Below are positions 7,858 through 36,858 of a DNA stretch of 64,000 nucleotides, piece after piece. A program made the translations under genes and the position numbers. The notes beneath the pieces were generated by a model. The model ran no database searches. It was not told the DNA's origin and worked only from the letters and a program-made list of their open reading frames with translations. Origin of the DNA: an uncultured Bacteroidales bacterium (GTDB taxonomy: Bacteria > Bacteroidota > Bacteroidia > Bacteroidales > FEN-979); the NCBI GenBank assembly GCA_903877385.1, contig CAIRDP010000023.1:3723-67722 (forward strand), read 5' to 3'. Within the stretch, counting starts at the first letter, position 1. Each line of letters begins with the position of its first letter.

Positions 7858-7877
7858 AATCTCAATATTTACAACAT

Positions 7878-11589: not shown

Positions 11590-14500
11590 TTAGTTTGTTA
11601 CTTCTAAAATTTCAACATAGTTGTCTAAATTACCGACCTTAACAATATCCCCAATTGAGTGCCCAAGAATTGAGGTTGCAAGGGGAGATTTGATATTGAT
11701 CTTCTGCACCCCTTCAGATGTTCCCAATTTGTTATTGGTTGTTTCAACTAGTTGAACAATAATGTCCTTGCCATTATTCACATATTTAACTTTGACCCTA
11801 CTTTTAAGTTTGATTTCGTCACTGAAAATTTTAAGCTGTTGAGGTTTTTGTTCTTCTAAGCGTTGAATAGATTCAACTTCTTTTTCGGTGTCGATGAAGG
11901 ATAATTGAGAAATATATGTATCAATATTCACAAAGTCATCCGTAAAAGCCGTGGAAATAGTAGAACTGTGAGTAGGACATTTTTTTTGTGTTGTTGTAAC
12001 GGTATCTTTAATAAAATGTACCAACCTCGCTGTTTCTCTTCCAGGGTTTTTCCACCAATTTGTACTCCAAATCCTATGAAATACAAATCCGTGACTTTCT
12101 AATATTTTTTGTCTAAAACTGTCATATAGGTATGCTTCCCTTTTTTCGTGATATTTTGCCCCATCACACTCAATAGCAATTTTTGGAACACCTTCTATTT
12201 TGGGGTCATAGACGATGTCGATTCTGAAACCAGCAAATTTGAATTGTGGTATTAATTTTTCTTCACCAAAGACATCCACCAACCTTTCGTAAACTTCTTC
12301 TTCAAATGGAGATTCCAAATCTCGATTTAGAACATTGATGCTTGTGTTTTTAGGGGCGTTCTCACTTAATGCAGTCAGAACAGAAAGTCTTAAATCACTA
12401 TTGCTTTCGCTGACGGCTTTGCTATATGCCAAATATGCATAAAAGATGGCTCTTTTATTATTCGACCCTTCAATCGTTAAGTATTCTTTATAATTAAGAA
12501 ATATTTGGGGTGGTATTGAAGAACATACATAGACTTTATATTTTGCCCTGGTAATAATAACATTTAGAAGTTTATATCCCTTGGAATGATTAAGCGGGCC
12601 GAATCTATGCGCAAATTTCCCGTCTTTCCCAACGCCATATGTAGTCGAAAGAATAACAACGTCTTTTTCATCACCCTGTATGTTTTCAAGATTTTTAATA
12701 AACGATTTATTACTTTTTGGGTCATCAAGCCCTAATTCTTGAATCTTCTCATTAAAGTGTGTGTATTTTTCAAACTTTTTTCTCTGACTAATTTTTGATA
12801 TTATTAGATTTCGCTGTGCTATATTGAAAGTGGCAACTCCAATTGTCGGGTATTCTCCATTTGGTAATCTATTAATGTTATTTTCTATTATTGATAATAC
12901 CATTTCGGCTTCTGCCTCATTTGTATGGTCAGAAAATGTTCCATTTACCTGAATATATTTAATAGGTACATATTCAAAGATGTTCGGTAATGGCATTAAT
13001 CTCTGATTATAAAAGGCATAGTTGGAAAAATCAATAAGATATGGATGTCTCGAACGATAGTGAAATTCCAACAATTTCTTTTCAAAATTTAATTCTGTTC
13101 CAAAGTCAAGCAAAGATTCACACGATAATAGGTTGTTGTCTTTGTCAACTATTATTTCTTCTTCTTCAATATCGTCTTCATCTTCGACATAGCCATCAAA
13201 GACTTTAGAAAAATAATTTGAAGGTGGCATTTGATGTTCGTCTCCTGCAATTATTATTTGTTTCCCTTTCAATATTGAGGGTAAATTATCTTCTAATCTA
13301 AGCTGACTTGCTTCATCAAACATTACAATGTCAAAGTACCCATTCATATGTTTAAATAAATTACAGCAAACATCGGGTGAGGTTAGAATAATTGGGAAAA
13401 AAGTTGTAAAAAGGTTTGTATCGAACTGCACAATTTGTCTTAATGATAATCTTTTGAACCTATTACTACTTCTTTTATTATAAATGTTTTCAACTGAAAT
13501 GTTATCATTACGGTGTTCAAACTCTCTGGTAGTGTCAATTTGTTTAGAAAACCAAAACTCTCGAATGTACCTTAACTGTTCTTTCCCAATGGCACTTAAA
13601 GATTTTTCAAGCTCTGAATGCTCATCGCTATTTGTAGGTAAATCAATGTTGGCGGAGTTCATTAATAACAAGTTCAAATAATGTATTAAAAAAACTTTTC
13701 TCCAATTAACCTTACTCTTCAATTCATTAATAACTTTTTTATTTTTCTCTGTTAACACATTAAAGAATTGATACCACTTGAACTCAATAGTAAAAAAGTC
13801 ATTCTCCCCGCTAAAATATTCTTTCTCCCGCGCTATTATTCTTTCTAAATCAATAAAAAGTGAATTAAAATTTGAATCGTGGATTATTTCTAAAGTGCAG
13901 CTATCAGAATTAAATCTGAGTATTAACCCCTTAGATTTTTCTTGAAGGTCAGCTAAATTAGGTAAGATCAAATCGGTTAACGGAATTTGTAGCCAATTGA
14001 TTTTTTCAAATTCATTTTGAATCTTAGAATTAAAATTCTTTTGAATCAAGTCGATATCTAATTCAATTCTTGAAAGTGATGATAACTTTTGGTTTAATGT
14101 CCCTTCGGGATTATATTCGTTGTCAATATCTTTGCTGCAATGAATATAATCAACAAGCTCTCGGAATTGTCTATGTAAGTCAACAACAAATTTTGAAACT
14201 TCGTCTTTAATTCTATTAAGCAAAGATAAATATTCAACTGAACTATTATCTTTAGTTAAAGCAATTTCTATGTTTTTAAATGAATCTTCAACATTTTCCT
14301 TTTCACGACTTGAACGAAGGTTAAAGTTTTCAAATTCTCTATCTGTTCTTTCTGCGAAACTGGATTTTACTTCAATTATTATCGAAGTAAACGACTCTAA
14401 GGTCTTCTGTTTAGTTTCAATTTGACCTGAAAAATCAAGAGTATCAAAATCTCTTGATTTAGAAATAGCAGTTTCAAGCTGGGTAAATAATACCTTTAGT

Positions 14501-16452
14501 TTTAAATTGTCAGAAATAATTGCTCTTTTTGATTGTGAGAATAATGACAATACTTTAAATGAAAATCTCCTAATTTTATCTTCGTTAAAAAAGTCGGGAT
14601 TCTGATAATTATTAGCAAATATTTCTTCAATTTTACCTATGAGATTGTGAAAATGTATAATTTGGGCAGATAACTCTGACTCTCGAAAAATACAATACTC
14701 ATATCTTAGACGCTGGATTAATTTTTCCAACTGTAGGAAATTATTTGTTATTGTTGTTGTTAATTGATGTATTCCAGCAATCTGCGCTTTAAGTTCCTCA
14801 ATTCTTAGGTTTATATATTCATTTCTAATTATTTCAAACAGAAGTTTAATAGATCCGATTTCTTTTCTATAATAATCAAAATCGTCAATAATTTTTTGCT
14901 CAATTAAATATGGGTTATCCCCTGAGAATTTCTTTGGGTTTATGAAAGATGTAGCTTCAATCTTCTTATATTCGTTATAAAGTTGCTGCCCTTTTTGCAC
15001 CAAACCCAGCGTAGTATTGAGTTCTTCCGATGTAAAATTAAAATGGGTTTTATCAATTTGCAGCGCATAGTCTTCATCCGCTCCTTTAAGTTCAAGTAAA
15101 AGTGTTCCAACAATGTCAGTCCAAGATTTATTACTTAGAAGTTTTTCATCAAGTTTTTTATGCTTTTTGTTTATAGAGATTATCAGATCTTTTGTCTTAC
15201 AGATCAAATTATCTAAAGATTCTTTTGAGAATGTGTAACGATAATGTTTATAGTCAGAGTTATCAACCCTATTTCGAACAGAATCAACAACCGTTCTTCT
15301 GTCTTTTACAATATCACGAATTAATACACAGTGAAAGTTGAGCCCTCTTTCAATTAGAGCGTTATGCAATACTTCTAATGCAGTTCTTTTTTCACAAACC
15401 ACAATTGTTTTTTTATTATTCTCTAAAGCATTTACAAGGATTGCTGTCAATGTTTGACTTTTACCTGTACCTGGGGGGCCTTGAATTAAGATATTCCGTT
15501 CGGATTCTAAAGAATGTAAAATGCTTTGCTGTGAAGGGTCTGTCTCAACAGAAGAAATCGGTTGAAAAGAATGTCCTTCGATACTGTCGAGGTTTATTGA
15601 TAGTCCTTCAAGCTCTAACAAATTTCCGTAATCATTAATGATATTTTGCTTCTGAACTTCAAAAATTGAAAACAATCCACCAAAATCAATAAAGGCGTTT
15701 GTTGAATTTAACGGTAATTTTTCATAATGAACTTTGTCACAAATTGGTGAAATATTTTCAAGTTTTTTCTTAAAAATATCCTTTATATCGCTTGGAACGG
15801 TTGTATTAATAGCTCTTAGAAGATTGTCGCATATTTCAATGAGTTCGTCTTTACTTATCAACCCATCGTCAAGCATTTCACTGGGTATTTGCTCAATCTC
15901 TATATTTGAATCATTTTGTAAATGATTAATCAACACTTCATTAAGATATATCGGGTCATCTTCGGTTCTGTTAATTTCCCACGTATTAAACTCTTTTGTT
16001 CTTTTGATTCTAAGAGCCCAGATTAAAACTGGTGCAACAGTCAATTTGTTATCAACTTGGTCTCGTCTAACCAGAATTGGGAAACCAAATCCAAAAGTGT
16101 TTATGCCTTTTTCTGATTCTATTGCTTCTGTTTGGTTGATTAAATTTTCAAACGCCTTTGTGATTCTAACTAATTGGTTTTGGTCTTCTTCAAATAGTGA
16201 GTTTAAATCGGGAACGTTTTCTTTCCAGCTAATTCTAAATTTTAATGGTTGTTCTGACAGGAGGGAATTAATGAAATTTGTCGGTAGGTTTTTATCTATA
16301 TATGATAGCCTGTTGAGGTCGAACTTGTAGCGAGATTTTGATGGAATAGCATTAAGATGAACACCTCTACGGTTACCGACTTTTAATCTCAATTGTAATT
16401 CAGTTAACAATTTCTTTGTCAGTTCCATTGTGGTAAATTTTGGTTTAGACAA
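11590..16452 (-). CDS. 1620-aa SF1 (Upf1/DNA2-like, DUF4011-type) helicase fused to a PD-(D/E)xK (DUF559/Vsr-like) nuclease and a GreA/GreB C-terminal-like domain
   Basis: Helicase motifs: Walker A LIQGPPGTGKSQT, motif II VMFDEASQL, motif III IIAGDEHQMPP, motif VI LNVIITRAKYKVYV. Nuclease core: FRIDIVYD...KIAIECDGAKYH...HRIWSTNWWKNP. Extreme C-terminus KINIKSPLATSILGHSIGDIVKV...YVEILEV resembles the GreA C-terminal domain. Confidence 0.85.
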   Translation of the reverse strand: MSKPKFTTMELTKKLLTELQLRLKVGNRRGVHLNAIPSKSRYKFDLNRLSYIDKNLPTNFINSLLSEQPLKFRISWKENVPDLNSLFEEDQNQLVRITKAFENLINQTEAIESEKGINTFGFGFPILVRRDQVDNKLTVAPVLIWALRIKRTKEFNTWEINRTEDDPIYLNEVLINHLQNDSNIEIEQIPSEMLDDGLISKDELIEICDNLLRAINTTVPSDIKDIFKKKLENISPICDKVHYEKLPLNSTNAFIDFGGLFSIFEVQKQNIINDYGNLLELEGLSINLDSIEGHSFQPISSVETDPSQQSILHSLESERNILIQGPPGTGKSQTLTAILVNALENNKKTIVVCEKRTALEVLHNALIERGLNFHCVLIRDIVKDRRTVVDSVRNRVDNSDYKHYRYTFSKESLDNLICKTKDLIISINKKHKKLDEKLLSNKSWTDIVGTLLLELKGADEDYALQIDKTHFNFTSEELNTTLGLVQKGQQLYNEYKKIEATSFINPKKFSGDNPYLIEQKIIDDFDYYRKEIGSIKLLFEIIRNEYINLRIEELKAQIAGIHQLTTTITNNFLQLEKLIQRLRYEYCIFRESELSAQIIHFHNLIGKIEEIFANNYQNPDFFNEDKIRRFSFKVLSLFSQSKRAIISDNLKLKVLFTQLETAISKSRDFDTLDFSGQIETKQKTLESFTSIIIEVKSSFAERTDREFENFNLRSSREKENVEDSFKNIEIALTKDNSSVEYLSLLNRIKDEVSKFVVDLHRQFRELVDYIHCSKDIDNEYNPEGTLNQKLSSLSRIELDIDLIQKNFNSKIQNEFEKINWLQIPLTDLILPNLADLQEKSKGLILRFNSDSCTLEIIHDSNFNSLFIDLERIIAREKEYFSGENDFFTIEFKWYQFFNVLTEKNKKVINELKSKVNWRKVFLIHYLNLLLMNSANIDLPTNSDEHSELEKSLSAIGKEQLRYIREFWFSKQIDTTREFEHRNDNISVENIYNKRSSNRFKRLSLRQIVQFDTNLFTTFFPIILTSPDVCCNLFKHMNGYFDIVMFDEASQLRLEDNLPSILKGKQIIIAGDEHQMPPSNYFSKVFDGYVEDEDDIEEEEIIVDKDNNLLSCESLLDFGTELNFEKKLLEFHYRSRHPYLIDFSNYAFYNQRLMPLPNIFEYVPIKYIQVNGTFSDHTNEAEAEMVLSIIENNINRLPNGEYPTIGVATFNIAQRNLIISKISQRKKFEKYTHFNEKIQELGLDDPKSNKSFIKNLENIQGDEKDVVILSTTYGVGKDGKFAHRFGPLNHSKGYKLLNVIITRAKYKVYVCSSIPPQIFLNYKEYLTIEGSNNKRAIFYAYLAYSKAVSESNSDLRLSVLTALSENAPKNTSINVLNRDLESPFEEEVYERLVDVFGEEKLIPQFKFAGFRIDIVYDPKIEGVPKIAIECDGAKYHEKREAYLYDSFRQKILESHGFVFHRIWSTNWWKNPGRETARLVHFIKDTVTTTQKKCPTHSSTISTAFTDDFVNIDTYISQLSFIDTEKEVESIQRLEEQKPQQLKIFSDEIKLKSRVKVKYVNNGKDIIVQLVETTNNKLGTSEGVQKINIKSPLATSILGHSIGDIVKVGNLDNYVEILEVTN

Positions 16453-17290: not shown

Positions 17291-18600
17291 CACTAGCGTT
17301 GCGTTATAGTTACAACAATATCAATTGATTACAATTTTGTTCTTTGACATCTTGATTATCTTCATTTTGAAAGAGCTTTTTTATCGAAGTTCTATCTAAT
17401 GCTGAAAGGCTTACCAATTGCAGGATTTCATACAGCGATTGCTTTAGTTTAAGTTGTTTTTTTGCAATGACAACGATAACATAAGTCGATATTGCGATCC
17501 AAACCTGCGTTCTTACTGCGTTTTCACTTTGTCCCCAGAATGATTGAATCTTTAGGTGTTGTTTTATCCATTTGAAAAATAGTTCAATACCCCAGCGTTT
17601 CTTGTATAATGCTGCAATTGTGAGGGGCGCCAATTTGAAATTATTTGTAAGAAAAACAAGTGTGTTCCCAGTTTCCTCATCAAAATATCGAATCCTTCTT
17701 AATGGTTCGGGATACTTTGTTGATGTAATAGGGTCAGTGAGGACAATGGTTTGATCACAAATAACTCCTTTTGTTTTATCTGTTATTCTTCTTTCAAGCA
17801 CTCTGTATTTCATATTCTTTTTTGCTCTGACTACAAAGTTGGTTCTTCCTTTTGCAAATCGCCTCAATCTTACGAAATCGATGTATCCCTTATCCATTAC
17901 CAGGTAACTCCCTGCAGGTAGAGAAAAATAGTCCATTGTATTAACCTCGTGAACGGATCCATCGGTGATAAAGATATACTCAGGTATTGCAGTTTTTAGA
18001 TCAATAAGTGTATGGAGTTTAATTGCTGCCTTGGTAGAGCGGAATTTTGCCCACCAAAAAACATCCAAGCACAGATCAATGGTAGTGGCATCCAGAGCAT
18101 AAACTTTGCCTTTCAGTTTTAAATCTATCAGATTGTCGTCCTCACATAACACTCGTGCCTGATCAATGAGTTTAAGTGCAAAATCACGAAATATTCGCCA
18201 ATCTCTATTCTCATTGGCTCTTGCAATTGTAGATTTATCAAACGCTCTGCCAATTCCCAAATGATAAAGTTTATCCTTCTGGAGTTTTAAACAAAGGGCT
18301 GTGTCAGAAAGGCTTTCCCTGTGAGTAAGTTGGCCAAATGCCATACAGAGAAACTGCTTCCAGCAAGTTAGTCCCTTGTTATTGTAATCGCCATTGTATC
18401 GTTTAACACCATATTTGAAAACATCCCATGGCACAAATTCCATTAACTGAGCGAATACCATCTTTCCCTTGTTCATCCTGGGTTTTTTGAACAAAGAACG
18501 GTAAAACAAAATTCAAATCTCGGATCGCAAAAAAACTCAGCAAACAAAGATATATCAAGCCTTTCAAAGAACTTTTAACAATTTATACGCAACGCTAGTG
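17291..18600 (-). mobile_element. IS4-family insertion sequence (1310 bp) with terminal inverted repeats
   Basis: Left end CACTAGCGTTGCGTTATA (17291-) and right end TATACGCAACGCTAGTG (-18600) form a 14-bp perfect IR, extending imperfectly. They enclose a single transposase ORF. Confidence 0.8.
17310..18509 (-). CDS. IS4-family DDE transposase (DUF4372-type N-terminus)
   Basis: MVFAQLMEFVPWDVFKYGVKRYNGDYNNKGLTCWKQFLCMAFGQLTHRESL N-terminus and a DDE_Tnp_1-like body (ALDATTIDL...VMDKGYIDF...YKKRWGIELFFKWIKQ). Confidence 0.85.
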   Translation of the reverse strand: MFYRSLFKKPRMNKGKMVFAQLMEFVPWDVFKYGVKRYNGDYNNKGLTCWKQFLCMAFGQLTHRESLSDTALCLKLQKDKLYHLGIGRAFDKSTIARANENRDWRIFRDFALKLIDQARVLCEDDNLIDLKLKGKVYALDATTIDLCLDVFWWAKFRSTKAAIKLHTLIDLKTAIPEYIFITDGSVHEVNTMDYFSLPAGSYLVMDKGYIDFVRLRRFAKGRTNFVVRAKKNMKYRVLERRITDKTKGVICDQTIVLTDPITSTKYPEPLRRIRYFDEETGNTLVFLTNNFKLAPLTIAALYKKRWGIELFFKWIKQHLKIQSFWGQSENAVRTQVWIAISTYVIVVIAKKQLKLKQSLYEILQLVSLSALDRTSIKKLFQNEDNQDVKEQNCNQLILL

Positions 18601-20474: not shown

Positions 20475-21011
20475 TCACCTCCCTTCCCTTTCTTCAAGCA
20501 CAACCAGATTCGTCAGATCCCCTTCTTTTTGTGGAATGACAATCAGTTCAGACTCTCCCGCGAAACAGGCAATTATGCACTCCTTTCGGGCAGTTGCCTG
20601 AACCACAACCTTGGGAAGATGATGTGTGTCCTGGTTGCGGATGTAAATGAAAGCAAAGAACCACGCCTGTACCCTGTCAAGAGTCCAACTGATGCCGAAT
20701 TCACCACTCTCGTATTCCTGGCGGGTCATCCCTCGATAAACCGTGACCTTATCGGGAAGGTTCTTTAAAAAGTTCCGTTGAACTGGATCCATCAGTAGTT
20801 CCCTGTGCTTCCGCGGCGACAGGAATGCACGTTTTTTTCGTTCACGGAAAACATATCCGTTATCGCTTCCTGTGTGCGCCATTGCGAGGGATTCCCAGTA
20901 TTCGGCATCGTTCATAAAGGGCGACAGCTCTTCAAATAATGCGAACCGCGTGTAACTGTCTGCAAGAATAAGGGCATCCGAAAATGCTTCTCTAATTTTT
21001 GGTTTTTTCAT
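20475..21011 (-). CDS. Hypothetical protein with candidate R-S-ExE ADP-ribosyltransferase-like motifs (178 aa)
   Basis: VTVYRG (R93), GISWTLD (S108), FAGESELIVIP (E153-x-E155) in the order expected for the R-S-E ART clade. The R-to-S spacing is unusually short. Confidence 0.4.
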   Translation of the reverse strand: MKKPKIREAFSDALILADSYTRFALFEELSPFMNDAEYWESLAMAHTGSDNGYVFRERKKRAFLSPRKHRELLMDPVQRNFLKNLPDKVTVYRGMTRQEYESGEFGISWTLDRVQAWFFAFIYIRNQDTHHLPKVVVQATARKECIIACFAGESELIVIPQKEGDLTNLVVLEEREGR

Positions 21012-21029: not shown

Positions 21030-23186
21030 TTACGAAGCCTTGGCATAGATCCTTTTCATTTCTCCGTCTTGTCTGACCTCAATGAATGGCAGCCTGAACA
21101 CATCCGCCTGCCTGTTCAGGATTATCTTCTGAGATTCACCATTTGTGATATTGTCGATGTTCAGGGGAACCTGCAAGCCCCATCGTTGGAACTCCCGTGC
21201 AATCCTATCCTTTAGCAGTTCAACATCCCCTGCTTTACACAGGATCCCATCGTGCAAACTCAAAAAGTGAGGTCGCTTCTCCTTGACAATGAGATCACGC
21301 AAAATATGGTCGACAAAAACATTGGCTTCCCTGCCCTGGAGCTCCCTTGCCAGTTCTTTGTAATTGAACCGCTTGACATCTTCAATGACCTTCCATACGT
21401 TGGGAAATGATTTGATAAAAACGTTCTTAATGAAAACCTGGTAAGGGTTTCCTTTTTTTTTCACCTCACCGATGACCATTGGCTTTGGTTTCTTTGTCAT
21501 TTTGGATTGTCCAGGGAGCAACCCGTAGTAAACGTGCCGTGCAAGCTGCGTCTTGATCTTCTTCTTTTGCTCACTGTTCATTTCGCTGCTGTAAGCCCGC
21601 GTGATGGCTTCGTGTAGTTCCTGTACAAAAGCAATGTCAATCAGGTCGGGGTTATCAAGGTTGGGCTTGCGGATTTTGAATAACTTTTGCAGCACCTGTT
21701 GGGTCTTTGGATTTTCCTGGTCGATTTTAAGCAACTTGCGCAGTGAGGGCAGCCAGAAATGAATCGTACGAATAAGTGCCAGGTGGTCTTTGTCGTGAAC
21801 CAAACTTGAAAGGTACTTCCTGCACTGGCTGAACAATGGTTTGAGTGTCTTAAACCTTGATAAGATCATCAGGCGATGTATCTCACTGTACAGCTTGCCA
21901 TCCTGAACCAACTGGATGTACCTGATAACATCCTCGTTTTTCCCCCTTGTTCTAAGTAGTTGCAGGAAGGTTGGAACGGAATCAATCTCGAAATTGTAAT
22001 CTCGCCACTCATTCTGCTGGTAATGCTCCATAAGGGTCGGAACGAACAGTAATGGCTGGGCATTAGCCAGGTCAAGGATGTAAAGATCATCCTTTACCCC
22101 TGCGAAATACAGGAACCGACGCAGCCGTTTGGGCGACAGGGTAAACAGGGTATGCAGCCGTTTGCCGAACTCATCACGCTTTACACAGTCATTTCCCTTG
22201 GTCTTATCAACCCTGTCAACATATGCTTCTTCTCTAATACGTTTTGAAAGAAGGCGCGCTTGAACCTCTGCGGTAAGCTTATTTTGGCTTTGCAGTCTGT
22301 TGCATTCCTGCTGGTAACTGGTCTTGATGAACGCAAGGGCGTCATTTTTCCGAATCCGAAGGGTTTGCAGGGCTCGAAGCGAATATTGCGTTACATCATC
22401 CATTTCTAACTTCTCCCGCTCCCTGGCATCGATCAGCAGGGAATTTATTTCGGAATTGACAACGGGGAACGAGGTAACCTTGCCAAGGGTGCCCGACAAA
22501 AACAACTGCTCATTGATGCGGAATTTGTCCACGTATTTCTTCGGAACGTATTCAACGCGTTCCAGTATGCCGCTTGCCGATGCAATGTACTTTGCAGTCG
22601 TTACCTTTTTCTTCGACCTGAACACCTCGATAAGCTCCGTGTTGCTGATTCCCGTGAAAGGGTCGTATTCGTAGGAACGGGGCTTTTTCTTCCTTGGCTT
22701 TGTAAGTATCAGATGTATCATATAAATTATAATCCAGATTACTTTTGAGTCTGTATAAATCTCTTTGGATGGCGGGGAATGCTTTTGAACCTCTTCCTGG
22801 GATTGCAATGAATGGCGGGGAACTGTTTTAGCAGGAGCGGAAAGAAGGTTCGTTGGGCTGCCGATTGCACTTGAATACCTCTTGATATTTTCCATCAATT
22901 CAAGTTTCCGTTGGTATTCGAGTAAAGAAATAGGATTAGATTCCGTTCTTTGAACTGGTTTTACCGTTGGGAAATTAAAAGAATGGTTACTTGTATCTTT
23001 AGAAAGGGAAATAACAGGCAGCTGTTCCTTTTCTTCCCTTATCCCAATTGTTGAAATAGTTAGAGATTCCAAGTGTTCCAGGAGCTTTTCTCGAATTTGT
23101 CCGAATTCGAGGTTCTCATACCCATATAAATGACTTATGTCATTTCTCTTTTTACTCTTTTCTAAATATCTTTTCTTCTTATCCAT
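21030..23186 (-). CDS. Highly divergent family-A (Pol I-like) polymerase-domain protein without recognisable exonuclease domain (718 aa)
   Basis: GKRLHTLF, KRLRRFL, LDLANAQPLL (motif A), KIKTQLARHVYYG (motif B), FIKSFPNVWKVIEDV, GREANVF, SLHDGIL (motif C) and LQVPLNID occur in the same order as the Taq/Klenow signatures. Confidence 0.65.
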   Translation of the reverse strand: MDKKKRYLEKSKKRNDISHLYGYENLEFGQIREKLLEHLESLTISTIGIREEKEQLPVISLSKDTSNHSFNFPTVKPVQRTESNPISLLEYQRKLELMENIKRYSSAIGSPTNLLSAPAKTVPRHSLQSQEEVQKHSPPSKEIYTDSKVIWIIIYMIHLILTKPRKKKPRSYEYDPFTGISNTELIEVFRSKKKVTTAKYIASASGILERVEYVPKKYVDKFRINEQLFLSGTLGKVTSFPVVNSEINSLLIDAREREKLEMDDVTQYSLRALQTLRIRKNDALAFIKTSYQQECNRLQSQNKLTAEVQARLLSKRIREEAYVDRVDKTKGNDCVKRDEFGKRLHTLFTLSPKRLRRFLYFAGVKDDLYILDLANAQPLLFVPTLMEHYQQNEWRDYNFEIDSVPTFLQLLRTRGKNEDVIRYIQLVQDGKLYSEIHRLMILSRFKTLKPLFSQCRKYLSSLVHDKDHLALIRTIHFWLPSLRKLLKIDQENPKTQQVLQKLFKIRKPNLDNPDLIDIAFVQELHEAITRAYSSEMNSEQKKKIKTQLARHVYYGLLPGQSKMTKKPKPMVIGEVKKKGNPYQVFIKNVFIKSFPNVWKVIEDVKRFNYKELARELQGREANVFVDHILRDLIVKEKRPHFLSLHDGILCKAGDVELLKDRIAREFQRWGLQVPLNIDNITNGESQKIILNRQADVFRLPFIEVRQDGEMKRIYAKAS

Positions 23187-23438
23187 ATGATTACCAATTC
23201 CTTTTCAGATTATTCATACATATTCATATTTTATTCTTTTCTCCAACTATTATAAATATTCAATTGATTATCTTAATTCAATATTGACCACAATTATTAC
23301 CATCTATCTCTAATCGGAACATTTCAAGACCATATCCATTGATATCCAACCAAATAACCGTTTTTAAGATATTCCACCCCAGGGGTCTTTGCGGCTCCAT
23401 TTCCCTGGATTTCATTGTGTGTCATTAAGGTTTCCATA

Positions 23439-23618
23439 TTATTTCAATTTAGATTTAATTCGAGGTTTCGCAGTCACTTTATACCCATCTTCCAGGGGGT
23501 TCCCGCCATCCCTGGCGGGATTACCCTGGCTGATGACGGCAGCCGTGGTGTTGCCGATTTCTTGCGGTTCCAGCCGCACTGTCCTGAGTTGCCGCATAGT
23601 TCTTGCATTTTCAGTCAT
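23439..23618 (-). CDS. Possible 59-aa ORF (alternatively non-coding structured RNA)
   Basis: ATG 18 nt after the DUF5131 stop; MTENARTMRQLRTVRLEPQEIGNTT.... The segment is also unusually hairpin-rich. Confidence 0.25.
   Translation of the reverse strand: MTENARTMRQLRTVRLEPQEIGNTTAAVISQGNPARDGGNPLEDGYKVTAKPRIKSKLK
23492..23529 (-). other. Extended GC-rich hairpin
   Basis: CCAGGG-ggtt-CCCGCCA-tccc-TGGCGGG-atta-CCCTGG: 6-bp and 7-bp stems separated by a symmetric internal loop. No T-run follows on either strand. Confidence 0.6.
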
Positions 23619-23632
23619 CGGGTTCCGATTTT

Positions 23633-24391
23633 CTACGACACAACATAATGAGTGTAACTCTGAGTCCAGGTCGGGATGCTTGGTTTGGGTAATTCTTTGT
23701 ATTCCCAGCCAGCGAGCTCGCAGCCCAGTTGCCTTGGATGAAACCCAGACCATTGCTTGAAGAAGAATGCAACACCCTTTCGCTTGCAGATATCCCGCAG
23801 TTCCAGTGCCCATTCCTTCTTCATTTCACGGAAGCCACTACCTGACTCACCACCACAAATGCACCAGTCTACGCCTGTGAGGTCTATGTCGCTTACTGGG
23901 CTTAACATCGGCTCCACCGAAATGAATCGTATTGCAGCAGGGATTCTTCTCAAATGGGCTATCCTGTGGTAATACTGGTTGCTTTCCACAGTACAGCCCA
24001 TCCAAATGTTCTGTGTCCAGTTAAGTTCCGATGAAAGCTCTTCCGCCCGTTCTATGCGCTTGGTCAGCACCTGAAACGTGAGGTGTGGGTTATCATTCAT
24101 AACCTTCCACACACGTTTGATGTAGGACAATGGAATTTGCCTGTGGAACAAGTCGCCCATACTGGGAACGAAAACCTTCTGCGGCTTTTTCCAGTGATAG
24201 GGTTTATCCAGTTCACCAGGATGCATCTGCACCCTGAATCCCTTCTCATACTTGGGATTTCCCATTACCAGTAGATGATTCGCTTCCCGTGCTGCGTAAC
24301 AGTGGTCACATCCTGGGGAGATCCTTTCTCCTGCACAGCCGCTTACGGGGTTCCAGGTGCGGTCTGTCCAGCTTATCTTTGAATTGCTCAT
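23633..24391 (-). CDS. DUF5131 / phage Gp37-Gp68 family protein (three-Cys motif)
   Basis: ISWTDRTWNPVSGCAGERISPGCDHCYA N-terminus, FVPSMGDLF, FQVLTKR, WMGCTVE, FISVEPML, WCICGGESG are all typical of PF07505. Confidence 0.8.
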   Translation of the reverse strand: MSNSKISWTDRTWNPVSGCAGERISPGCDHCYAAREANHLLVMGNPKYEKGFRVQMHPGELDKPYHWKKPQKVFVPSMGDLFHRQIPLSYIKRVWKVMNDNPHLTFQVLTKRIERAEELSSELNWTQNIWMGCTVESNQYYHRIAHLRRIPAAIRFISVEPMLSPVSDIDLTGVDWCICGGESGSGFREMKKEWALELRDICKRKGVAFFFKQWSGFHPRQLGCELAGWEYKELPKPSIPTWTQSYTHYVVS

Positions 24392-24480
24392 AAGTTTATG
24401 GTTTTTAGATTAATAAATCAGGATGGATGCCCACCCCTGTCATTGATTGAATCAGGGATGGGCAGCATCCAGTTTACTGG

Positions 24481-25119
24481 TTATACAATTGCTTGTTCAG
24501 GTTGTTCTATTGATTCAGGTTCACCGAACTCTACGAACCCATTACGGGATTCGATGTACCGATAAAAGGCTGACCCATCACTGCCCACTGAGAACCTTTT
24601 TGGTTCATACCCCAGTGATGCAAGATGAAAATATTCTTCATCAAGACATTCCAGTGTGTGTTCTGAGGGTTCACCTGCTCTATCGTAGATCAGTAATTCA
24701 ACCTTATGAATATGGTCAACCATAAAGACCTCAATTCTATAGCCGTTATAGTTACGGTACCCCTTGTTCTTTGCCACTCCTGGGGAATCAAAAACAAGAC
24801 CGCCCAACTTATGCTCATTTTCGAGCAACGAAGCAAGACCTGCTGCATAGATTATGGAATCCCTGCGCGATTCAAATGGATCGGGGCGGTTGAAAAGGCA
24901 AGATTCTCTGTAGCCGCTCCGACTGGTAGGGTTTTCACCATCACCAACCTGCCACTCGAACAAGCCCACCAGATAGCTTATTGGGCATTCTGGTTGGAGT
25001 TCAACATTTTTATTATCTGCTGCATACTCAACACCTTTATCGGTGGAATTAGCAACAGTTTCAATCGGTGCGTGTGCTGCACTTAGTGCAGCATCACGAC
25101 TTTTGGTAACAGTTCTCAT
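24481..25119 (-). CDS. Hypothetical protein (212 aa)
   Basis: ORF only; co-directional between the frameshifted gene and DUF5131. Confidence 0.5.
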   Translation of the reverse strand: MRTVTKSRDAALSAAHAPIETVANSTDKGVEYAADNKNVELQPECPISYLVGLFEWQVGDGENPTSRSGYRESCLFNRPDPFESRRDSIIYAAGLASLLENEHKLGGLVFDSPGVAKNKGYRNYNGYRIEVFMVDHIHKVELLIYDRAGEPSEHTLECLDEEYFHLASLGYEPKRFSVGSDGSAFYRYIESRNGFVEFGEPESIEQPEQAIV

Positions 25120-25123
25120 TGTG

Positions 25124-25751
25124 CTAATTGTTTAAATTTATAATTGAGTTATTTGTAATTTCTTTTTTGTCATAGAACCAATCGAGGTCAAGCTGCACCC
25201 ATTTTTGCATTGCCAAGCCCCCCCGATTAAATTTGCCACCTATACCAATGATTCCGCAGTGATGTGCACCAATTCCATTGCACTCTTTGAGCGGCAGGGT
25301 TGAGTATACTCTGTTCCCAAGACTTGCTGATTTATCCGTCAGCAGGTCAATCCATCCACTCTTTAAATGTTTGATAGTCTTTATCCCCAACAATGTCGTT
25401 AAATTGTTTTGTATCAATGAATGTGTATATTTCAGTGTGTATCGAACCAGCTAATTCGGAAACGCTGCCAAGTTGTTTTGCTGCTAAGCTGAATAATCCA
25501 TTCATCACTAATCCGAGAAGGGGTAACTTTCGATTATCAAATTCAAACGAGGTTCCATTCAGAGAGCGCAACGTTATATTCCCATTATTTTTACTTTCAT
25601 AAACAAAAGGTGTCACATCAAAAACAGAAAGCCAAATGGCAACTGCATATCTACCTTTTATGGGGTGGTCACCGTAGAAACTGATGATTAATTTTTCATC
25701 GATATACTTTAGAATATCGCTTATTGTTTTAAACTTTTTATCTTTATTCAT
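25124..25751 (-). pseudogene. Probable frameshifted gene (134-aa and 97-aa ORFs overlapping by 71 nt)
   Basis: ORF 25347..25751 ends ...YQTFKEWMD-stop, while ORF 25124..25417 reads ...IKHLKSGWIDLLTDKS across the same bases in another frame. One indel would fuse them to ~210 aa. Confidence 0.4.
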
Positions 25752-25892
25752 ACAGGTAAATTTTAGATGATTAAATAACTATTATTTGATTTGTAATTCA
25801 TTCTTTTGGGTTCAACAGTATATGAGTTTTCATATTATCTGGGTTAATGTTCCTGTTTATTTTCTTGTTGTTTTTGAATCTGGTGCAGTAAA

Positions 25893-27254
25893 TTAGGCGG
25901 CACGCAGCAGGATTTGATCTTCAAAGCTGTTTTGCTGTTCATACTTGATTCGCTGGGCAAGGGCAAGCCCGACCTTTTCTACGATGCCGACAACCAGTGC
26001 ATTTCCCATAAAAGATGCCCGCTTGACATCGGATATGCCTTCAAGCCTGGTGTGATTGTCGGGAAACATATTGAGCCTTTCAAGTTCGATTGGCATCAGG
26101 CGTCTTAGACCTTTATCAGTCTGGATTACGTGTTTAACCCTTGATGGTGACGAACCGCCTTCTTGTGTGATTATCGTGCGAGAGGGCTTGTCCAGGGGGT
26201 CTGGGAACTTCAACGCACCTTCGTTATAATGATATTCGGAACCATCAGGCTTTCTGCGGATTATTTTCTTTGCCCCTTTCAGGTAATGCCATTTATCCAA
26301 ATCTTTTTCATCGATGAAGTACCCTTCTTCCACGTCACCATTGAGGATAATGTCATTTAGCACCTGATAGGCACATTTCGGGCAAGGGGTTGTTTTCAGC
26401 GTTGTTACGGTGCCATTAATAATTAATCCCGCATTATTAAAAGCAGATCTGGCATTTGGCTTATTGAATGCGGAAGAGATATCAGCAATGTCACCCGTCA
26501 GGTGGAATATTGATGGGAGAATTACTGGCTGTCGACACAGCGGAAAAGCTTCGGCAAGGGTGCCCTTATTTAAGATCCATTCCTTTGGGGAAGTTTCAAT
26601 GATGCGCTTGAAGATGGATGACGTCCTGTGGTACCCCAGGATGAATATTCTCTTTCTTCGTTGCGGCATACCATATTCAGCCGCATTAATAACGCGCCAT
26701 TCAACGGCATATCCCAGTTCATTCAGGCTTTGCAGTATAATTGCGAAATCCCTGCCCCTTTGGGTTTTCGGGGAAATGAGCAGTCGGTCGACATTCTCGA
26801 ACAGCAGGTATTTTGGTTTTTCTTTCTTCTCATTCAGGATTTTATAAACCGACCACCACAGAACACCCTTTTTCCCAATTAGCCCTTTTGAGTTTTTCAG
26901 GGTTGTTGCCACGGAGTAATCCTGGCACGGGAAGCCGCCAACCAATAGGTCGTGGTCAGGAATTGAAGCAACATCAACCGTGGTAATGTCTTGGTTGCTT
27001 ACCCCTTCGTTCCCCCAGCGGCTGACGTAGACATTGAAAGCGTGCTGGGTCTTTGTCGATGGCTCAAACTGGTTGCTCCATACAATCTCGTATGGTGATA
27101 CAAATTCATCGTTGTAACCCGATGATGCTGATTTACGGTTCCAGCCTTCGAGCCCCAGCCTGAACCCTCCAACACCAGCAAAAAGTTCTGCAACTTTTAT
27201 TTTACTTACCCCGTTGATTGTATTTTTTGACATTTTAACCTTGTTTCTTTTCAT
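25893..27254 (-). CDS. dcm: DNA (cytosine-5)-methyltransferase
   Basis: Motif I AELFAGVGGF, motif IV GGFPCQDYS, motif VI LLFENVDRLL, motif VIII QRRKRIFILG, motif X GNALVVGIV. Start set at MKRNKVKM (27254). Confidence 0.9.
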   Translation of the reverse strand: MKRNKVKMSKNTINGVSKIKVAELFAGVGGFRLGLEGWNRKSASSGYNDEFVSPYEIVWSNQFEPSTKTQHAFNVYVSRWGNEGVSNQDITTVDVASIPDHDLLVGGFPCQDYSVATTLKNSKGLIGKKGVLWWSVYKILNEKKEKPKYLLFENVDRLLISPKTQRGRDFAIILQSLNELGYAVEWRVINAAEYGMPQRRKRIFILGYHRTSSIFKRIIETSPKEWILNKGTLAEAFPLCRQPVILPSIFHLTGDIADISSAFNKPNARSAFNNAGLIINGTVTTLKTTPCPKCAYQVLNDIILNGDVEEGYFIDEKDLDKWHYLKGAKKIIRRKPDGSEYHYNEGALKFPDPLDKPSRTIITQEGGSSPSRVKHVIQTDKGLRRLMPIELERLNMFPDNHTRLEGISDVKRASFMGNALVVGIVEKVGLALAQRIKYEQQNSFEDQILLRAA

Positions 27255-27519
27255 TATTTTTTGTTGAACAATCAGTGTTTTTGAATAGTACAGTGCATAG
27301 TTTGGACTGTATGACATTCTTAATGTTATGAATATCAATTAAATTGATGTTTAATATAATACGTGGTGGATGTTAATCCTGGCGCTGCAATTCAGCGTTC
27401 GGATCAATGATTATGGCGACCGTGAATGTTGATGCCAAAGGGTGGCTGGGTTGTATTTTAATTGAGGTTTCATAATCTTGTATCAATATAGTTTGTGGTT
27501 ATTTTGATATCTTACCCAT

Positions 27520-28071
27520 TTAAGCGGCAAATGAATTGTAAGTAGGAGCGAACAGATCAATCATACGGTAATCCAAGATCTCCCAGGTCTTTCTGTCATC
27601 CTTGACTGGAATCACCCTGTTTTCAGTTTCATATCCATATTCCCGATACCACATCAATTCAGCAATGCAGTAATCAAGATATTCATCAGGGGGATTGAAG
27701 AAATCGGCTTCTGAAATGGTCATTCTGTCACCCGTTTTTTTGTCAACGCAATCAATTTCCAATGAAAGGGCTGTAAAGTTCTTCATTCCCTTTGCAAATG
27801 CTTCATCAGGCGTATCAAGGTGCTTTTTACAAAGCTTGCCATCAATATTGGCATCCTGTAGTAGTTGGAATGCGTGGTTGAAGGCTCTTTTACGACAGTC
27901 GATTGCCCTGCCACCTTGAAAGAGCTCTTCCTTATCCACAATCGTCGAACACACACGGTTCTTGTTAAAATGAAGGATTTCGAGTTTTACAACATAAGAA
28001 ATGTTGTTTGTTTCGGCTGCGATGGCTTTGGCTGTCTTTGCTGTGCCATCATTGTTACTTGATTTTTTCAT
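27520..28071 (-). CDS. Hypothetical protein (183 aa)
   Basis: ORF only. Confidence 0.5.
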   Translation of the reverse strand: MKKSSNNDGTAKTAKAIAAETNNISYVVKLEILHFNKNRVCSTIVDKEELFQGGRAIDCRKRAFNHAFQLLQDANIDGKLCKKHLDTPDEAFAKGMKNFTALSLEIDCVDKKTGDRMTISEADFFNPPDEYLDYCIAELMWYREYGYETENRVIPVKDDRKTWEILDYRMIDLFAPTYNSFAA

Positions 28072-28122: not shown

Positions 28123-28395
28123 TTAGAATCTTGGAGCCATCCCAACTTTTTCCAAATCCTGTTTGACCTCATATAAGTTGTATAGTATTTTCCGCCCGAT
28201 CTTCCGAAATCTGATTACTTTTCTATCACGATAGTTTTGCATTGTTCTTCTGCTTATAGGAATGTACTTCAACAGTTGATCGGTGGTCAGCAGTTCTTTA
28301 TCCTGCTTTTCATTTTGCTCGATCCACTGTAATAGCTTATCCAACTTCATATTTATTTCGCTATATTCATTTTCGGAAAAATTGTAGACTTTCAT
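28123..28395 (-). CDS. Excisionase/MerR-type (HTH_17-like) DNA-binding protein
   Basis: LLTTDQLLKYIPISRRTMQNYRDRKVIRFRKIGRKILYNLYEVKQDL matches the small HTH proteins common in Bacteroidota mobile elements. Confidence 0.65.
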   Translation of the reverse strand: MKVYNFSENEYSEINMKLDKLLQWIEQNEKQDKELLTTDQLLKYIPISRRTMQNYRDRKVIRFRKIGRKILYNLYEVKQDLEKVGMAPRF

Positions 28396-28462
28396 AACTT
28401 GTGACTTTAAAAAATTGTTCTTTTAAATTTTCGACAAAGTTACGGAACCCCTTTGGAGTCAA

Positions 28463-28498
28463 GGGTTACAAGAAGGGTTACAAGAAGGGTTACAAGGG
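28463..28498. repeat. Three tandem 12-bp direct repeats (GGGTTACAAGAA x2 + GGGTTACAAGGG), iteron/operator-like
   Basis: Read directly; located 68-103 nt upstream of the HTH gene start (28395). Confidence 0.8.
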
Positions 28499-31105: not shown

Positions 31106-31672
31106 ATGAAAAATGTCGCATTGTATCAGCGCGTGTCAACATCAAGTCAAACGGTCGATAATCAGCGCATCCGTTTAATTGAATACGCTGAACGAAATGG
31201 TTTCACCTATGATATCTTTGAAGAAGTTGAATCAACCCGCAAAACAAGACCCGTGAAGCAGGCACTACTGTCTGATCTTAGGGCTGGTAAATATGATGCG
31301 GTTGTTGTTTACAAGCTGGACAGGTGGGCAAGAAGCTCAACGGAACTGATCCTCGACACCAAAGAATTAATCGATAAAGGCATTGGCTTCATCAGCATCA
31401 GCGACAACCTTGACTTTGGCACCGCATCTGGGAAGTTGCACTTCCAAATCTTGTCGGCGTTCGCGGAGTTTGAGAGGGAACTTATCCGTGAGCGGACTAT
31501 CGAGGGGCTCCGACGTTCCAAATTGCAGGGCAAGACGCCAGGGCGCCCGAAGGGCTCAAAGGATTTGACCAAACGGAAACGGTCAGGCTACATTTTGCGG
31601 GAAGCGCGAAAAAGGCAATTGGTGGAATCAGATTCGGGCATCCATAAATCGATTGAAGCCTACCTCAATTAA
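31106..31672 (+). CDS. Serine recombinase (resolvase/invertase family), short C-terminus
   Basis: N-terminal VALYQRVSTSSQ (catalytic Ser), VVVYKLDRWARS, ISISDNLDF, ERELIRERT, GRPKG. The usual C-terminal HTH is not evident. Confidence 0.85.
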   Translation: MKNVALYQRVSTSSQTVDNQRIRLIEYAERNGFTYDIFEEVESTRKTRPVKQALLSDLRAGKYDAVVVYKLDRWARSSTELILDTKELIDKGIGFISISDNLDFGTASGKLHFQILSAFAEFERELIRERTIEGLRRSKLQGKTPGRPKGSKDLTKRKRSGYILREARKRQLVESDSGIHKSIEAYLN

Positions 31673-33627: not shown

Positions 33628-33733
33628 ATTCCTTTCGATTGAATCATTATTTGTAAAATTAGAATATTTTCAAGTCCACAAATAATTATGGTTTTTATTA
33701 ATTTTCGGTATTCTGGCAGGTATATTGGTTCAG

Positions 33734-33883
33734 GTGAATGGAGTGTCCTGTATTCGACCAGGTGTTTCTCAGGATAAGGTTGATGCCATTGCCGTGCTGC
33801 AGGTGCAAGGATTGTCGTTGTGTAAAATCGCAAGGGAAATTGGCGTTCACCACGGAACGGTGGCGAAATACCTGAGTAATTGA
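33734..33883 (+). pseudogene. Remnant of a serine-recombinase C-terminal HTH domain (or a 49-aa stand-alone HTH)
   Basis: Plus-strand frame reads IRPGVSQDKVDAIAVLQVQGLSLCKIAREIGVHHGTVAKYLSN-stop, the GRP...G.S...IA...GV...TV.KYL pattern of the resolvase HTH_7. No ATG and no catalytic domain upstream. Confidence 0.4.
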
Positions 33884-36781: not shown

Positions 36782-36858
36782 TGGTCGGGATGAGAAGACT
36801 CGAACTTCCGACCCCCACGTCCCGAACGTGGTGCGCTAGCCAACTGCGCTACATCCCG
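36782..36858 (-). tRNA. tRNA-Pro (anticodon CGG), CCA encoded
   Basis: Folded by hand into a 77-nt cloverleaf: acceptor CGGGATG/CATCCCG, D stem GCGC/GCGC, anticodon stem CCACG/CGTGG with loop TTCGGGA, T arm GGAAG-TTCGAGT-CTTCT, discriminator A + CCA. Confidence 0.9.

Follow-up and report, generated by a model that had tools for sequence, protein, structure and literature searches.

What is a lone gene with the catalytic motifs of DNA polymerase I (Pol I) doing in a mobile island, among genes of the defense and modification type? The question is posed by a stretch of 64,000 nucleotides (hereafter the window) from an uncultured Bacteroidales bacterium (assembly GCA_903877385.1, contig CAIRDP010000023.1, positions 3,723 to 67,722), in which a single open reading frame (ORF) of 718 codons with an ATG start occupies positions 21030-23186 of the minus strand, stop codon included. 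A sequence-only reading had located this ORF, leaving its strand unstated, had recognized in it a divergent stand-alone family-A polymerase core devoid of nucleases, and had favored for it a non-replicative role in defense or signaling. We find that the protein of 718 amino acids (aa) joins a family-A right-hand fold with invariant two-metal catalytic residues to an attached winged helix, that it has no proofreading domain, and that its gene belongs to the backbone of recombinase-bearing elements. The ORF call, a structural model, Foldseek and hhalign together characterize it as a winged-helix protein with a minimal family-A polymerase of the TV-Pol type and, by analogy with the primase-polymerase of SCCmec elements, we predict that it probably serves its element as initiator and primase-polymerase.

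Catalytic motifs and a hidden superfamily

Eight Pol I-like motifs had been picked out by eye, and all eight sit at the residues quoted: GKRLHTLF (aa 341-348), KRLRRFL (aa 353-359), motif A LYILDLANAQPLL (aa 368-380), motif B KKKIKTQLARHVYYG (aa 541-555), FIKSFPNVWKVIEDV (aa 590-604), GREANVF (aa 618-624), motif C FLSLHDGIL (aa 641-649) and LQVPLNID (aa 671-678). The likeness is meaningful, as the same residues are near-invariant positions in an alignment of 128 sequences of the superfamily delineated below: R343, D372, E620 and D646 are present in all 128, and R356, N375, Q377, P378, G430, Y433, K545, P595, K605, Q617 and H645 are 92-99% conserved, with Q377, Y433, K545, P595, K605 and H645 at 98% or above (e.g., K545 in 125/128 sequences, and H645 and Q377 in 127/128 each). 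The superfamily consensus reads GxRVHTNxTNLPxxLRxFL ... LDIxNSQP ... GxFYE ... RxxFKxxFFxxVFF on the N-terminal side and continues as FxxxFPxV...K ... LQxxES ... TIHDSI.

This superfamily is invisible to the domain libraries that we used. The window protein alone has no match in Pfam (at E up to 10), so that the profile match to PF00476 suggested as a check is lacking, nor in PHROGs or the PDB sequence library, and neither NCBIfam nor PADLOC holds a model that matches it. A search of 5.8 billion protein clusters recovered only seven close relatives (50-99% identity), all metagenomic; the clade was not found in GTDB genomes (one genome each of 185,579 species), and JGI metagenome contigs yielded just three loci, of which one is new and partial. 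The clade is thus a very rare gene. A profile of the window protein and these close relatives (A1) found nothing significant among PDB sequences, and a further profile (A2) likewise gave only sub-threshold matches there. Searched with HMMER against 1.84 billion cluster representatives, A1 retrieved 1,973 proteins at E <= 1e-3, of which 279 reach E <= 1e-10; this sets a lower bound of 1,973 on the number of clusters (50% identity). Most of these proteins are 400-550 aa long and match in two stretches, one around motif A and the other around motif C. None of ten members tested has a Pfam domain; one member, from Adhaeribacter (WP_200504427.1), is automatically labeled 'DNA-directed DNA polymerase family A palm domain-containing protein' in UniRef, and 19 members are matched by phrog_4756, a PHROG with no assigned function. 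We are dealing with a large superfamily for which none of the libraries that we used (Pfam, NCBIfam, PADLOC) provides a model.

The equivalence of the catalytic residues to those of Pol I, proposed by eye, was reproduced by profile alignment. In permissive hhalign comparisons all motifs are collinear with those of T7 DNA polymerase (DNAP): GKRLH pairs with GRATH and RLRRFL with QCRAAF, D372 with D475 and Q377 with the steric-gate E480, DGKLY with NGDIH, K545 with K522 and position 541 with R518, SFPNV with NTPAI (of FLENTPAI), LQGREA with LLQSAGA, and the HDG of motif C with the HDE of WVHDEIQ, which places D646 on D654. The motifs are collinear with T7 RNA polymerase (RNAP) as well, where D372, K545 and D646 correspond to D537, K631 and D812. 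The family profile aligned its motif B to T7 DNAP TRDNAKTFIYGFLYG and its motif C, TIHDSI, to LIHDSFGT of T7 RNAP (P = 0.03-0.06) and to VSVHDCYWT of the human mitochondrial RNAP (mtRNAP; E about 2); such sub-significant matches consistently fall on the correct motifs.

Against this shared frame, the departures of the window protein that had been noted by eye (steric-gate Glu to Gln, O-helix Phe to Ala, HDE to HDG) are all present, as Q377, A549 and the HDG of motif C. Motif B, with the family consensus R-x3-K-x3-F-x3-F, takes the form K541-x3-K545-x3-A549-x3-Y553: position 541 is R in 95/128 members, giving with the following K545 an RxxxK fingers motif, and position 549 is Ala vs Phe in 85/128 members. 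In motif C the family has HDS, like T7 RNAP. A relaxed sugar-selection pocket had been suggested from the Glu to Gln replacement; the replacement stands, but the case for relaxation is weak, since Gln377 is near-universal in the superfamily and is isosteric with the steric-gate Glu, whose bulk it keeps. The GRLSS/PNLQNIP segment, reported as missing, is instead present in a degenerate form: GKRLH...SP, with R343, aligns to T7 DNAP TGRATHAFPNLAQIPG, and the consensus GxRVHTNxTNLP is closer to this element than the window protein's own sequence. The spacing of motifs A and B was rightly described as long, at 173 residues vs a family median of 76, and is due to a well-folded helical insertion of about 95 aa particular to the clade. 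The corresponding spacing is 53 in Pol I and 94 in T7 RNAP.

Fold and domain architecture

We accept the family-A fold because the structural evidence was decisive where the sequence evidence stayed below significance. An initial AlphaFold model built on 8 sequences was of low quality (predicted local distance difference test score, pLDDT, 59) and gave non-significant Foldseek matches. A second model (AlphaFold2) of residues 140-718, built on a 104-sequence alignment from 120 family members collected, reached a mean pLDDT of 88.6 and a predicted template-modeling (TM) score of 0.78. Of its 38 top matches in the PDB, 37 belong either to the family-A DNA polymerases or to the single-subunit RNA polymerases, with the apicoplast Pol of Plasmodium (7sxq; prob 1.00, E = 9e-3) in first place and human mtRNAP (prob ~0.9), the N4 virion RNAP, T7 RNAP and yeast mtRNAP among the others. 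The predicted viral structures of BFVD gave eight matches at E <= 1e-3, headed by phage proteins of about 400-450 aa (e.g., A0A516L5C2, E = 1.7e-13, TM 0.56) and A0A8D9FR19, a 403-aa 'Putative DNA polymerase I' (E = 8e-9), with phage RNAPs and PolAs after them. Significant structural matches to the family-A palm were thus obtained from both collections, and the modeled right hand of thumb, RRM-type palm and helical fingers, which are inserted behind the first strand of the palm, is confirmed. Model, Foldseek and hhalign agree with the initial description of a divergent, nuclease-free, stand-alone family-A core in a mobile island.

The domains, all encoded on the minus strand, follow one another in a compact order. 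The N-terminal extension (aa 1-140; 22767..23186) is disordered (pLDDT <50 in the first model) and occurs only in the clade of the window protein, being variable and gapped in the A1 alignment and absent from family members of 400-460 aa. It is followed by a predicted winged helix-turn-helix (aa 147-224; 22515..22748) that in the second model comprises a helix, a strand, two helices and a beta-hairpin wing; Y155, L185, Y213 and F222 in it are conserved across the family, and Foldseek likens it to the MarR-type regulators SlyA and ZitR (prob 0.91) and to phage 'replisome organizer' proteins (prob 0.92). The thumb consists of two long antiparallel helices (aa 280-300 and 306-328; 22203..22349), modeled with a pLDDT of ~97 as helices 141-161 and 167-189 of the second model. 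Next come a beta-hairpin with R343 and R356 and the motif A strand with D372, N375, Q377 and P378 (aa 336-380; 22047..22181), R343 lying between short strands just before that strand. The clade-specific insertion in the fingers (aa ~439-537; 21576..21872; pLDDT ~95) appears as insert columns in hhalign and is placed between the G430-x-x-Y433 element and motif B. Motif B itself, the O-helix, spans aa 538-555 (21522..21575) and is assigned by conservation and the T7 DNAP alignment. The stretch F-x3-FPxV...K605 plus L-Q617-x-x-E620 (aa 590-624; 21315..21419) has P595, K605, Q617 and E620 conserved at 95-100%, and motif C with H645 and the catalytic D646 (aa 641-649; 21240..21266), supported by conservation and by the alignments with T7 RNAP, mtRNAP and T7 DNAP, lies on the palm hairpin, after which come the C-terminal strands. 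Neither Pfam nor Foldseek matches contain a 3'-5' or 5'-3' nuclease domain. The 340 N-terminal residues are therefore free of exonuclease motifs, as had been stated, yet they are not featureless, being made up of the disordered extension, the winged helix and the thumb. Compared with Pol I proper (Klenow, Taq, T7 gp5, apicoplast Pol; PF00476), motifs 2, A, B, 6 and C stand in the same order and register, whereas both exonucleases are absent, thumb and fingers are much reduced, Glu is replaced by Gln and HDE by HDG.

RNAPs form the majority of the PDB matches (mtRNAP, T7 RNAP, N4 RNAP), and the protein could on this account be a minimal promoter-specific single-subunit RNAP, in which the winged helix would read a promoter and the core would transcribe the element's genes or make an RNA primer, in the manner of T7 RNAP and mitochondrial RNAP. 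T7-type enzymes (T7, N4 virion and mitochondrial RNAPs; PF00940) share with the window protein the right-hand fold, a motif C of the form HD(S/G) and the motif B pattern R/K-x3-K-x3-hydrophobic-x3-Y/F, and an N-terminal module for nucleic-acid recognition and de novo initiation are plausible further properties in common; a sequence-specific N-terminal domain would parallel the promoter-binding domain of T7 RNAP (PMC10061031). The family HDS, the replaced steric-gate Glu (Q377), the only recurrent weak Pfam match (PF00940, in 3/72 members, best E = 0.012) and the hhalign values (P = 0.029 for T7 RNAP vs 0.14 for T7 DNAP, with reference profiles built from viral contigs that are too shallow, at Neff ~2, for significant scores) point the same way. 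Against it, the best PDB match is a DNA polymerase and the best named viral match a 'DNA polymerase I'; Gln377 retains the bulk of the steric-gate Glu; and the equivalent of T7 RNAP Y639, the residue that reads the 2'-OH, is Y553 in the window protein but mostly Phe in the family (85/128), which would argue against rNTP selection of the T7 RNAP type. The G-x-x-(H/Y) element, here G-x-x-Y, aligns to the Pol A 'GDIH' element that T7 RNAP lacks, and the protein, at less than half the size of a T7-type RNAP, is far too small for the T7 modules and has no specificity loop, intercalating hairpin region or large N-terminal domain. The characterized relative CcPol, moreover, prefers dNTPs. We regard an RNAP, or an enzyme making RNA primers, as quite unlikely, though still as a serious alternative.

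Relationship to the TV-Pols

The design of the window protein has a published counterpart in the TV-Pols, described as minimal family-A-like polymerases that are never linked to nucleases (Iyer, Abhiman and Aravind 2008, Biol Direct 3:39; PMC2579912). Four hallmarks define them: the thumb is a coiled coil of two helices, a beta-hairpin supplies an Arg that is absolutely conserved, the palm is of the RRM type and has two Asp, and the fingers carry an RxxxK motif. They were predicted to be an ancestral, minimal form with primase and polymerase activity (PMC2579912). One subset is fused or linked to D5-like helicases; the other has an N-terminal accessory domain and is encoded beside a gamma-delta resolvase, a lambda-type integrase or a transposase, in integration hot spots rich in restriction-modification (R-M) genes (PMC2579912). 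The known taxa span Bacteroidetes, Planctomycetes, Verrucomicrobia, Firmicutes, Proteobacteria, the cyanophage Ma-LMM01 and Sputnik (PMC2579912).

All four structural hallmarks and the recombinase-linked context are found for the window protein. As in the TV-Pols, no nuclease is fused to it and none recurs beside the gene in 87 loci of the family; as in the second subset, an accessory N-terminal domain, here conserved family-wide, goes together with recombinase linkage; and the taxonomic spread reported in 2008 agrees with that of the family. No D5-like or AAA+ helicase is present in the window element or recurs in family loci, the D5-like-helicase linkage of the first subset being an alternative TV-Pol architecture that is mutually exclusive with the accessory-domain type. 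There are also differences: the N-terminal domain of the TV-Pols was predicted to be 'all-helical' (PMC2579912), whereas ours is modeled as a winged helix, and the clade of the window protein has the disordered N-terminal extension of ~140 aa, the insertion of ~95 aa in the fingers, HDG in place of HDS, and Ala in the position that corresponds to F762.

A direct link is offered by Ma-LMM01 gp030, a 506-aa hypothetical protein encoded beside two transposase genes, in which the same order of motifs can be recognized by eye. The family HMM found no match among the ORFs in the first 50 kb of Ma-LMM01, and gp030 alone aligned to the family at P = 0.088 in hhalign. The viral relatives of gp030, all >90% identical, were of no use for a profile; tblastn with gp030 reached further relatives on two plasmids, one from Polaromonas and one from Calothrix, and in both cases a serine recombinase gene lies just upstream. 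A profile that combines the three lineages aligned to the full family alignment at P = 2.6e-5 (prob 75%, 380 columns), spanning the N-terminal domain and with every motif in register, including L-Q617-x-x-E620 on 'LLQRIE' of gp030; against the polymerase core alone it scored P = 7.9e-4. We conclude that the window protein is a rare, divergent and structurally embellished member of the TV-Pol kind, with gp030 as the putative Ma-LMM01 representative. The description of the protein as aberrant is borne out as to its divergence, but its overall design matches this published family (PMC2579912), which had been overlooked. The TV-Pol kind has been known computationally since 2008 and would not surprise a specialist; it is almost untouched experimentally.

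A backbone gene of small integrative elements

We fetched 79 loci from named genomes, which belong to Ignavibacteria, many Bacteroidota, Planctomycetota, Verrucomicrobiota and a few Proteobacteria, and clustered the neighboring ORFs over 87 loci. The commonest neighbor is a tyrosine integrase, found in 38/87 loci at a median of 0.9 kb upstream. A gene with an HTH_17 domain lies directly upstream in 12 loci, often overlapping the polymerase start codon, and resolvases (one cluster in 7 loci), DUF3871 and an AAA_24 ATPase also recur. The family gene is located at the border of integrated elements, and its translation is often coupled to that of the integrase or HTH_17 gene. The same 87 loci show no recurrent defense gene, helicase or single-stranded-DNA-binding (SSB) protein, no recurrent conjugation or relaxase genes and no conserved cluster of a small partner protein.

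The window repeats this organization. A small serine recombinase (resolvase; 31106..31672, plus strand; PF00239, E = 2e-36) is encoded divergently from the polymerase gene and is presumed to be the element's integration and excision enzyme. An HTH_17 gene of the excisionase/AlpA type (28123..28395, minus strand; PF12728, E = 1.1e-7) represents the second most frequent neighbor cluster and is followed by a 183-aa backbone gene (27520..28071, minus strand) whose product is 54% identical to that of L001:5647-6342, likewise located after an HTH_17 gene. The locus L001, with a polymerase 55% identical to ours, has the same divergent resolvase, HTH_17 genes and this 183-aa homolog; an apparent synteny of the 443/90/183-aa ORFs of the window with 474/64/183-aa ORFs of L001 was a coincidence of sizes, and the true shared neighbors were found by systematic BLAST.

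The locus L008 separates backbone from cargo. It shares three segments only with the window, 31045-30439 (83% identity over 613 bp; backbone segment 30439..31045), 25240-25097 and 23600-21058, the last of which covers the gene and a conserved non-coding stretch upstream of it (23187..23600, minus strand; 89% identical to L008 and 79% to L007) that is a candidate operator or origin. It has none of the methylase, DUF5131, 443-, 183- and 212-aa genes. Since L008 has the polymerase gene and its flanks without these neighbors, the gene is backbone and the block of DUF5131, 212-aa and 134-aa genes and C5 cytosine methylase (23633..27338, minus strand), absent from L008 except for ~140 bp, is cargo; within it, DUF5131 (23633-24391, minus strand; Pfam E = 7e-89) stands directly upstream of the polymerase gene and the methylase occupies 25893-27338 on the minus strand. 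The polymerase gene is therefore part of the backbone of a small integrative element, together with the resolvase and HTH_17 genes. As had been noted, no exonuclease, replicative helicase, primase or clamp gene was found around it. In L008 itself, the closest full-context relative (L008:2980-5129, 86% identity) is split by a frameshift into P0003 (458 aa) and P0011 (258 aa), as a pseudogene or through an assembly error, and three genes with weak 'HA' (helicase-associated) matches lie downstream of it that the window does not have.

These neighborhoods bear directly on the preference of the sequence-only reading for an anti-phage effector or sensor that makes an unusual nucleic acid or a signaling or abortive product. 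The flanking methylase and DUF5131, the latter with matches to PADLOC candidate components, and a TIR-like gene nearby are in keeping with it, as is one family locus that adjoins a type I R-M system and a cyclase-TIR pair, and Rice (2022) leaves defense as a possibility for PolA-SSB primases. The polymerase itself, however, has no PADLOC match, the defense-like neighbors are missing from L008 and hence look like cargo rather than partners, and what recurs over the 87 loci is not DUF5131 or any other defense gene, as conservation of the neighborhood would have had it, but integrases, resolvases and HTH_17, at the edges of integrated elements and often in translational coupling with the polymerase. 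With a backbone gene, recombinase and HTH_17 companions and a winged helix resembling replisome organizers, the non-replicative reading of a polymerase 'alone among cargo' is unsupported, and a defense function strikes us as very improbable. The option of replicating a small element, also raised by that reading, is the one that the evidence favors.

Short superfamily members also occur in six 'huge phage' genomes of 595-735 kb (LR756511, LR756501-04 and LR745206), with 28-35% identity to P0020. These, and the matches of phrog_4756 to superfamily members, are what could be cited for an ordinary replicative prophage PolA; yet there is no exonuclease domain, and neither the window nor its relatives contain a phage replication or structural module, nor PolA genes of the ordinary kind set in such modules with exonucleases. 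Accidental motif resemblance, in turn, is excluded by the invariant catalytic residues and the structural matches. Both explanations are effectively refuted.

A Hymenobacter plasmid carries a family member beside a serine recombinase and, in addition, a normal Rep gene. The idea that the protein acts as sole plasmid replicase was dropped, as the Hymenobacter and Polaromonas plasmids both have Rep genes of their own.

Upstream repeats as candidate binding sites

Three loci of the window protein's clade have tandem arrays right in front of the gene, on its upstream side. In L010 (832-945) there are 8.8 copies of CATTAATGAATAA and in L001 (9926-9974) 3.5 copies of ATCATTAATGAAT, both with 13-bp units, while L286 (1125-1228) has ~7 copies of a 15-bp unit with a 30-bp period (two 15-bp units). 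A repeat core, CATTAATGAAT, is common to L001 and L010, although the identity of either protein to the window protein is only ~50-55%. Across the loci, arrays are enriched about 3-fold per kb upstream of the gene, and we take them as a hint, but no more, that the winged helix binds specific sites. The window copy of this region, at 23187..23600, shows weak repeats only (two copies of TGAATAT[TG]TAT and the palindrome CAATTG). As a site in the window, the L001/L010 unit ATTAATGAAT was considered and discarded, being not enriched there (16 matches vs 12.4 expected).

Predicted function of the polymerase

The only TV-Pol studied biochemically is CcPol of SCCmec elements, which with its small single-stranded (ss) DNA-binding partner MP forms a primase-polymerase that makes DNA from dNTPs and depends on a template but not on a primer (Bebel et al. 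2020, PMC7581432). Both CcPol and the window protein have an A-family domain without proofreading and belong to integrative elements with serine recombinases. CcPol, found in Firmicutes as opposed to the Bacteroidota of our family, requires MP, a separate OB-fold protein, and shares its operon with a helicase; neither of the two is conserved beside the present gene. CcPol also keeps E710 and F762 where the window protein has Q377 and A549. A 178-aa ORF downstream of the polymerase gene (20475-21011) is conserved only in its first 58 aa and in one relative. In seven distant family loci (e.g., L248:2832-3179), an apparently beta-rich protein of ~115 aa with no Pfam match is encoded ~340 bp downstream, a candidate reminiscent of the OB-fold partner MP.

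From the analogy with CcPol-MP we infer de novo priming and extension, and we posit the following course of events. After excision or transfer of the element, the winged helix would bind repeated sites in the element's own DNA beside the gene; the polymerase core would start DNA synthesis de novo, with two-metal catalysis by D372 and D646, and extend the product for a short distance, whereupon host enzymes would take over. The covalently attached winged helix would in this scheme replace the separate ssDNA-binding partner that CcPol needs, and the outcome would be that the excised circle is replicated, or that the second strand is made once the element has been transferred. Functional analogs are to be seen in archaeo-eukaryotic primase-polymerases (AEP), replisome-organizer and plasmid Rep proteins, which occupy the same niche beside integrase and excisionase in small integrative elements and likewise combine a winged helix with a nucleotidyltransferase, although the catalytic folds (AEP vs family-A palm) are unrelated.

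Several observations weigh against this assignment as initiator and primase-polymerase. Sequence-profile matches to PF00476 and PF00940 stay below significance, and the identification of gp030 with the Ma-LMM01 TV-Pol of the 2008 paper draws on its transposase neighbors and motifs, not on an accession. CcPol is a distant model, has no such N-terminal domain, and retains the steric-gate Glu and F762. Neither a helicase, such as would unwind the DNA, nor an SSB partner is conserved beside the gene, and separate Rep genes are present on two carrier plasmids (Hymenobacter and Polaromonas). There is no clear iteron array upstream of the window gene, and arrays occupy only 9/96 upstream windows and are thus not general in the family. 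Finally, no att-like direct repeats that would mark the ends of the element were found in the window.

Some of these observations would also fit an enzyme confined to gap filling or second-strand synthesis, which would turn transferred or excised ssDNA into duplex or fill gaps in recombinase-mediated replicative transposition and would not be an origin-specific initiator. Iyer et al. proposed replicative transposition with a resolvase or integrase (PMC2579912), Rice proposes second-strand synthesis after transfer, and both the coexisting Rep genes and the lack of general iterons accord with such a role. The replisome-organizer-like winged helix and the upstream arrays of three loci fit site-specific initiation better, and conjugation or relaxase genes do not recur among the neighbors; we hence deem a purely gap-filling enzyme unlikely.

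The initiator and primase-polymerase that we favor may also be imagined in a stricter form, as a one-chain, sequence-specific initiator whose winged helix would read the element's repeats and whose core would start synthesis de novo with no primase, SSB partner or helicase. In a radical version the product would be RNA, making the protein by far the smallest promoter-specific RNA polymerase of the T7 type. Taken jointly, these two forms appear doubtful to us. Were either true, with DNA or RNA as product, a Pol I-like active site would have become a primase or an RNAP by minimal additions.

Family-A polymerases are textbook primer-dependent enzymes, and the de novo start of chains by some of them (T7 RNAP, CcPol-MP) is only partly understood. 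The window protein and its relatives offer a compact candidate, made of one chain, for work on how synthesis could be initiated by an active site of the Pol I type. Their wider interest lies in the winged-helix-fused TV-Pol form emerging as a superfamily of the size bounded above. Its gene is part of the core of small integrative elements in Bacteroidota, Planctomycetota and their relatives, and can serve to mark a class of integrative mobile elements that has been overlooked. In the window, a 'hypothetical protein' can be relabeled, and the backbone of the element is separated from its defense and modification cargo.

Other features of the window

The first ~36 kb of the window have a G+C content of 30-44%, as against ~50% beyond. 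A tRNA-Pro(CGG) gene (36782-36858, minus strand) marks the point where G+C rises from ~0.36-0.44 to ~0.50, and the segment from 1 to ~36.7 kb has the look of a composite island integrated beside it; an att-like repeat of the 3' end of this tRNA gene was looked for and not found. The host encodes a protein with a sorting domain of the type IX secretion system (T9SS), which points to Bacteroidota.

Within the cargo, the DUF5131 protein matches the PADLOC candidate defense components PDC-M41B and PDC-M30B (E ~1e-97), and a possible 'A' partner for it could be the 212-aa ORF at 24481-25119 or a 124-aa ORF at 23439-23813. The 316-aa ORF that follows the resolvase (31846-32796, plus strand) has weak matches to Nuc_deoxyrib_tr and DUF4062 and a PADLOC TIR-effector match (E = 9e-7), and may be a TIR-like defense effector carried as cargo. 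Upstream of the HTH_17 gene, in the interval before the 443-aa ORF, are a perfect three-copy tandem repeat with a 12-bp unit, AAGGGTTACAAG (28461-28496), and a 16-bp repeat in 2.5 copies (28377-28418), either of which may be an operator or a recombination site. A translated fragment at 33686-33880 (plus strand), separate from the intact resolvase, shares 48% identity with the last 48 aa of the L001 resolvase and may be what is left of a second recombinase gene or of an older element.

On the other side of the polymerase gene, the part of the island lowest in G+C (30-32%) encodes an unusual helicase-nuclease fusion of 1,620 aa (11590-16452, minus strand), which combines DUF4011, a superfamily 1 helicase (AAA_11/AAA_12), an MTES_1575/DUF559 restriction-endonuclease-like domain and a GreA/GreB-like C-terminus. 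Between this giant gene and the polymerase element lies an IS4-family DDE transposase with a DUF4372 N-terminal domain (17310-18509, minus strand), which may mark the junction of separately acquired segments. Three zinc-ribbon proteins are encoded in a row at 3875-8444 (minus strand), one of them 1,050 aa long, with several zinc ribbons, TPR and, at the C-terminus, Laminin_G_3, and another with a tRNA_anti-like OB domain; a DUF2130 protein comes next (8793-10049).

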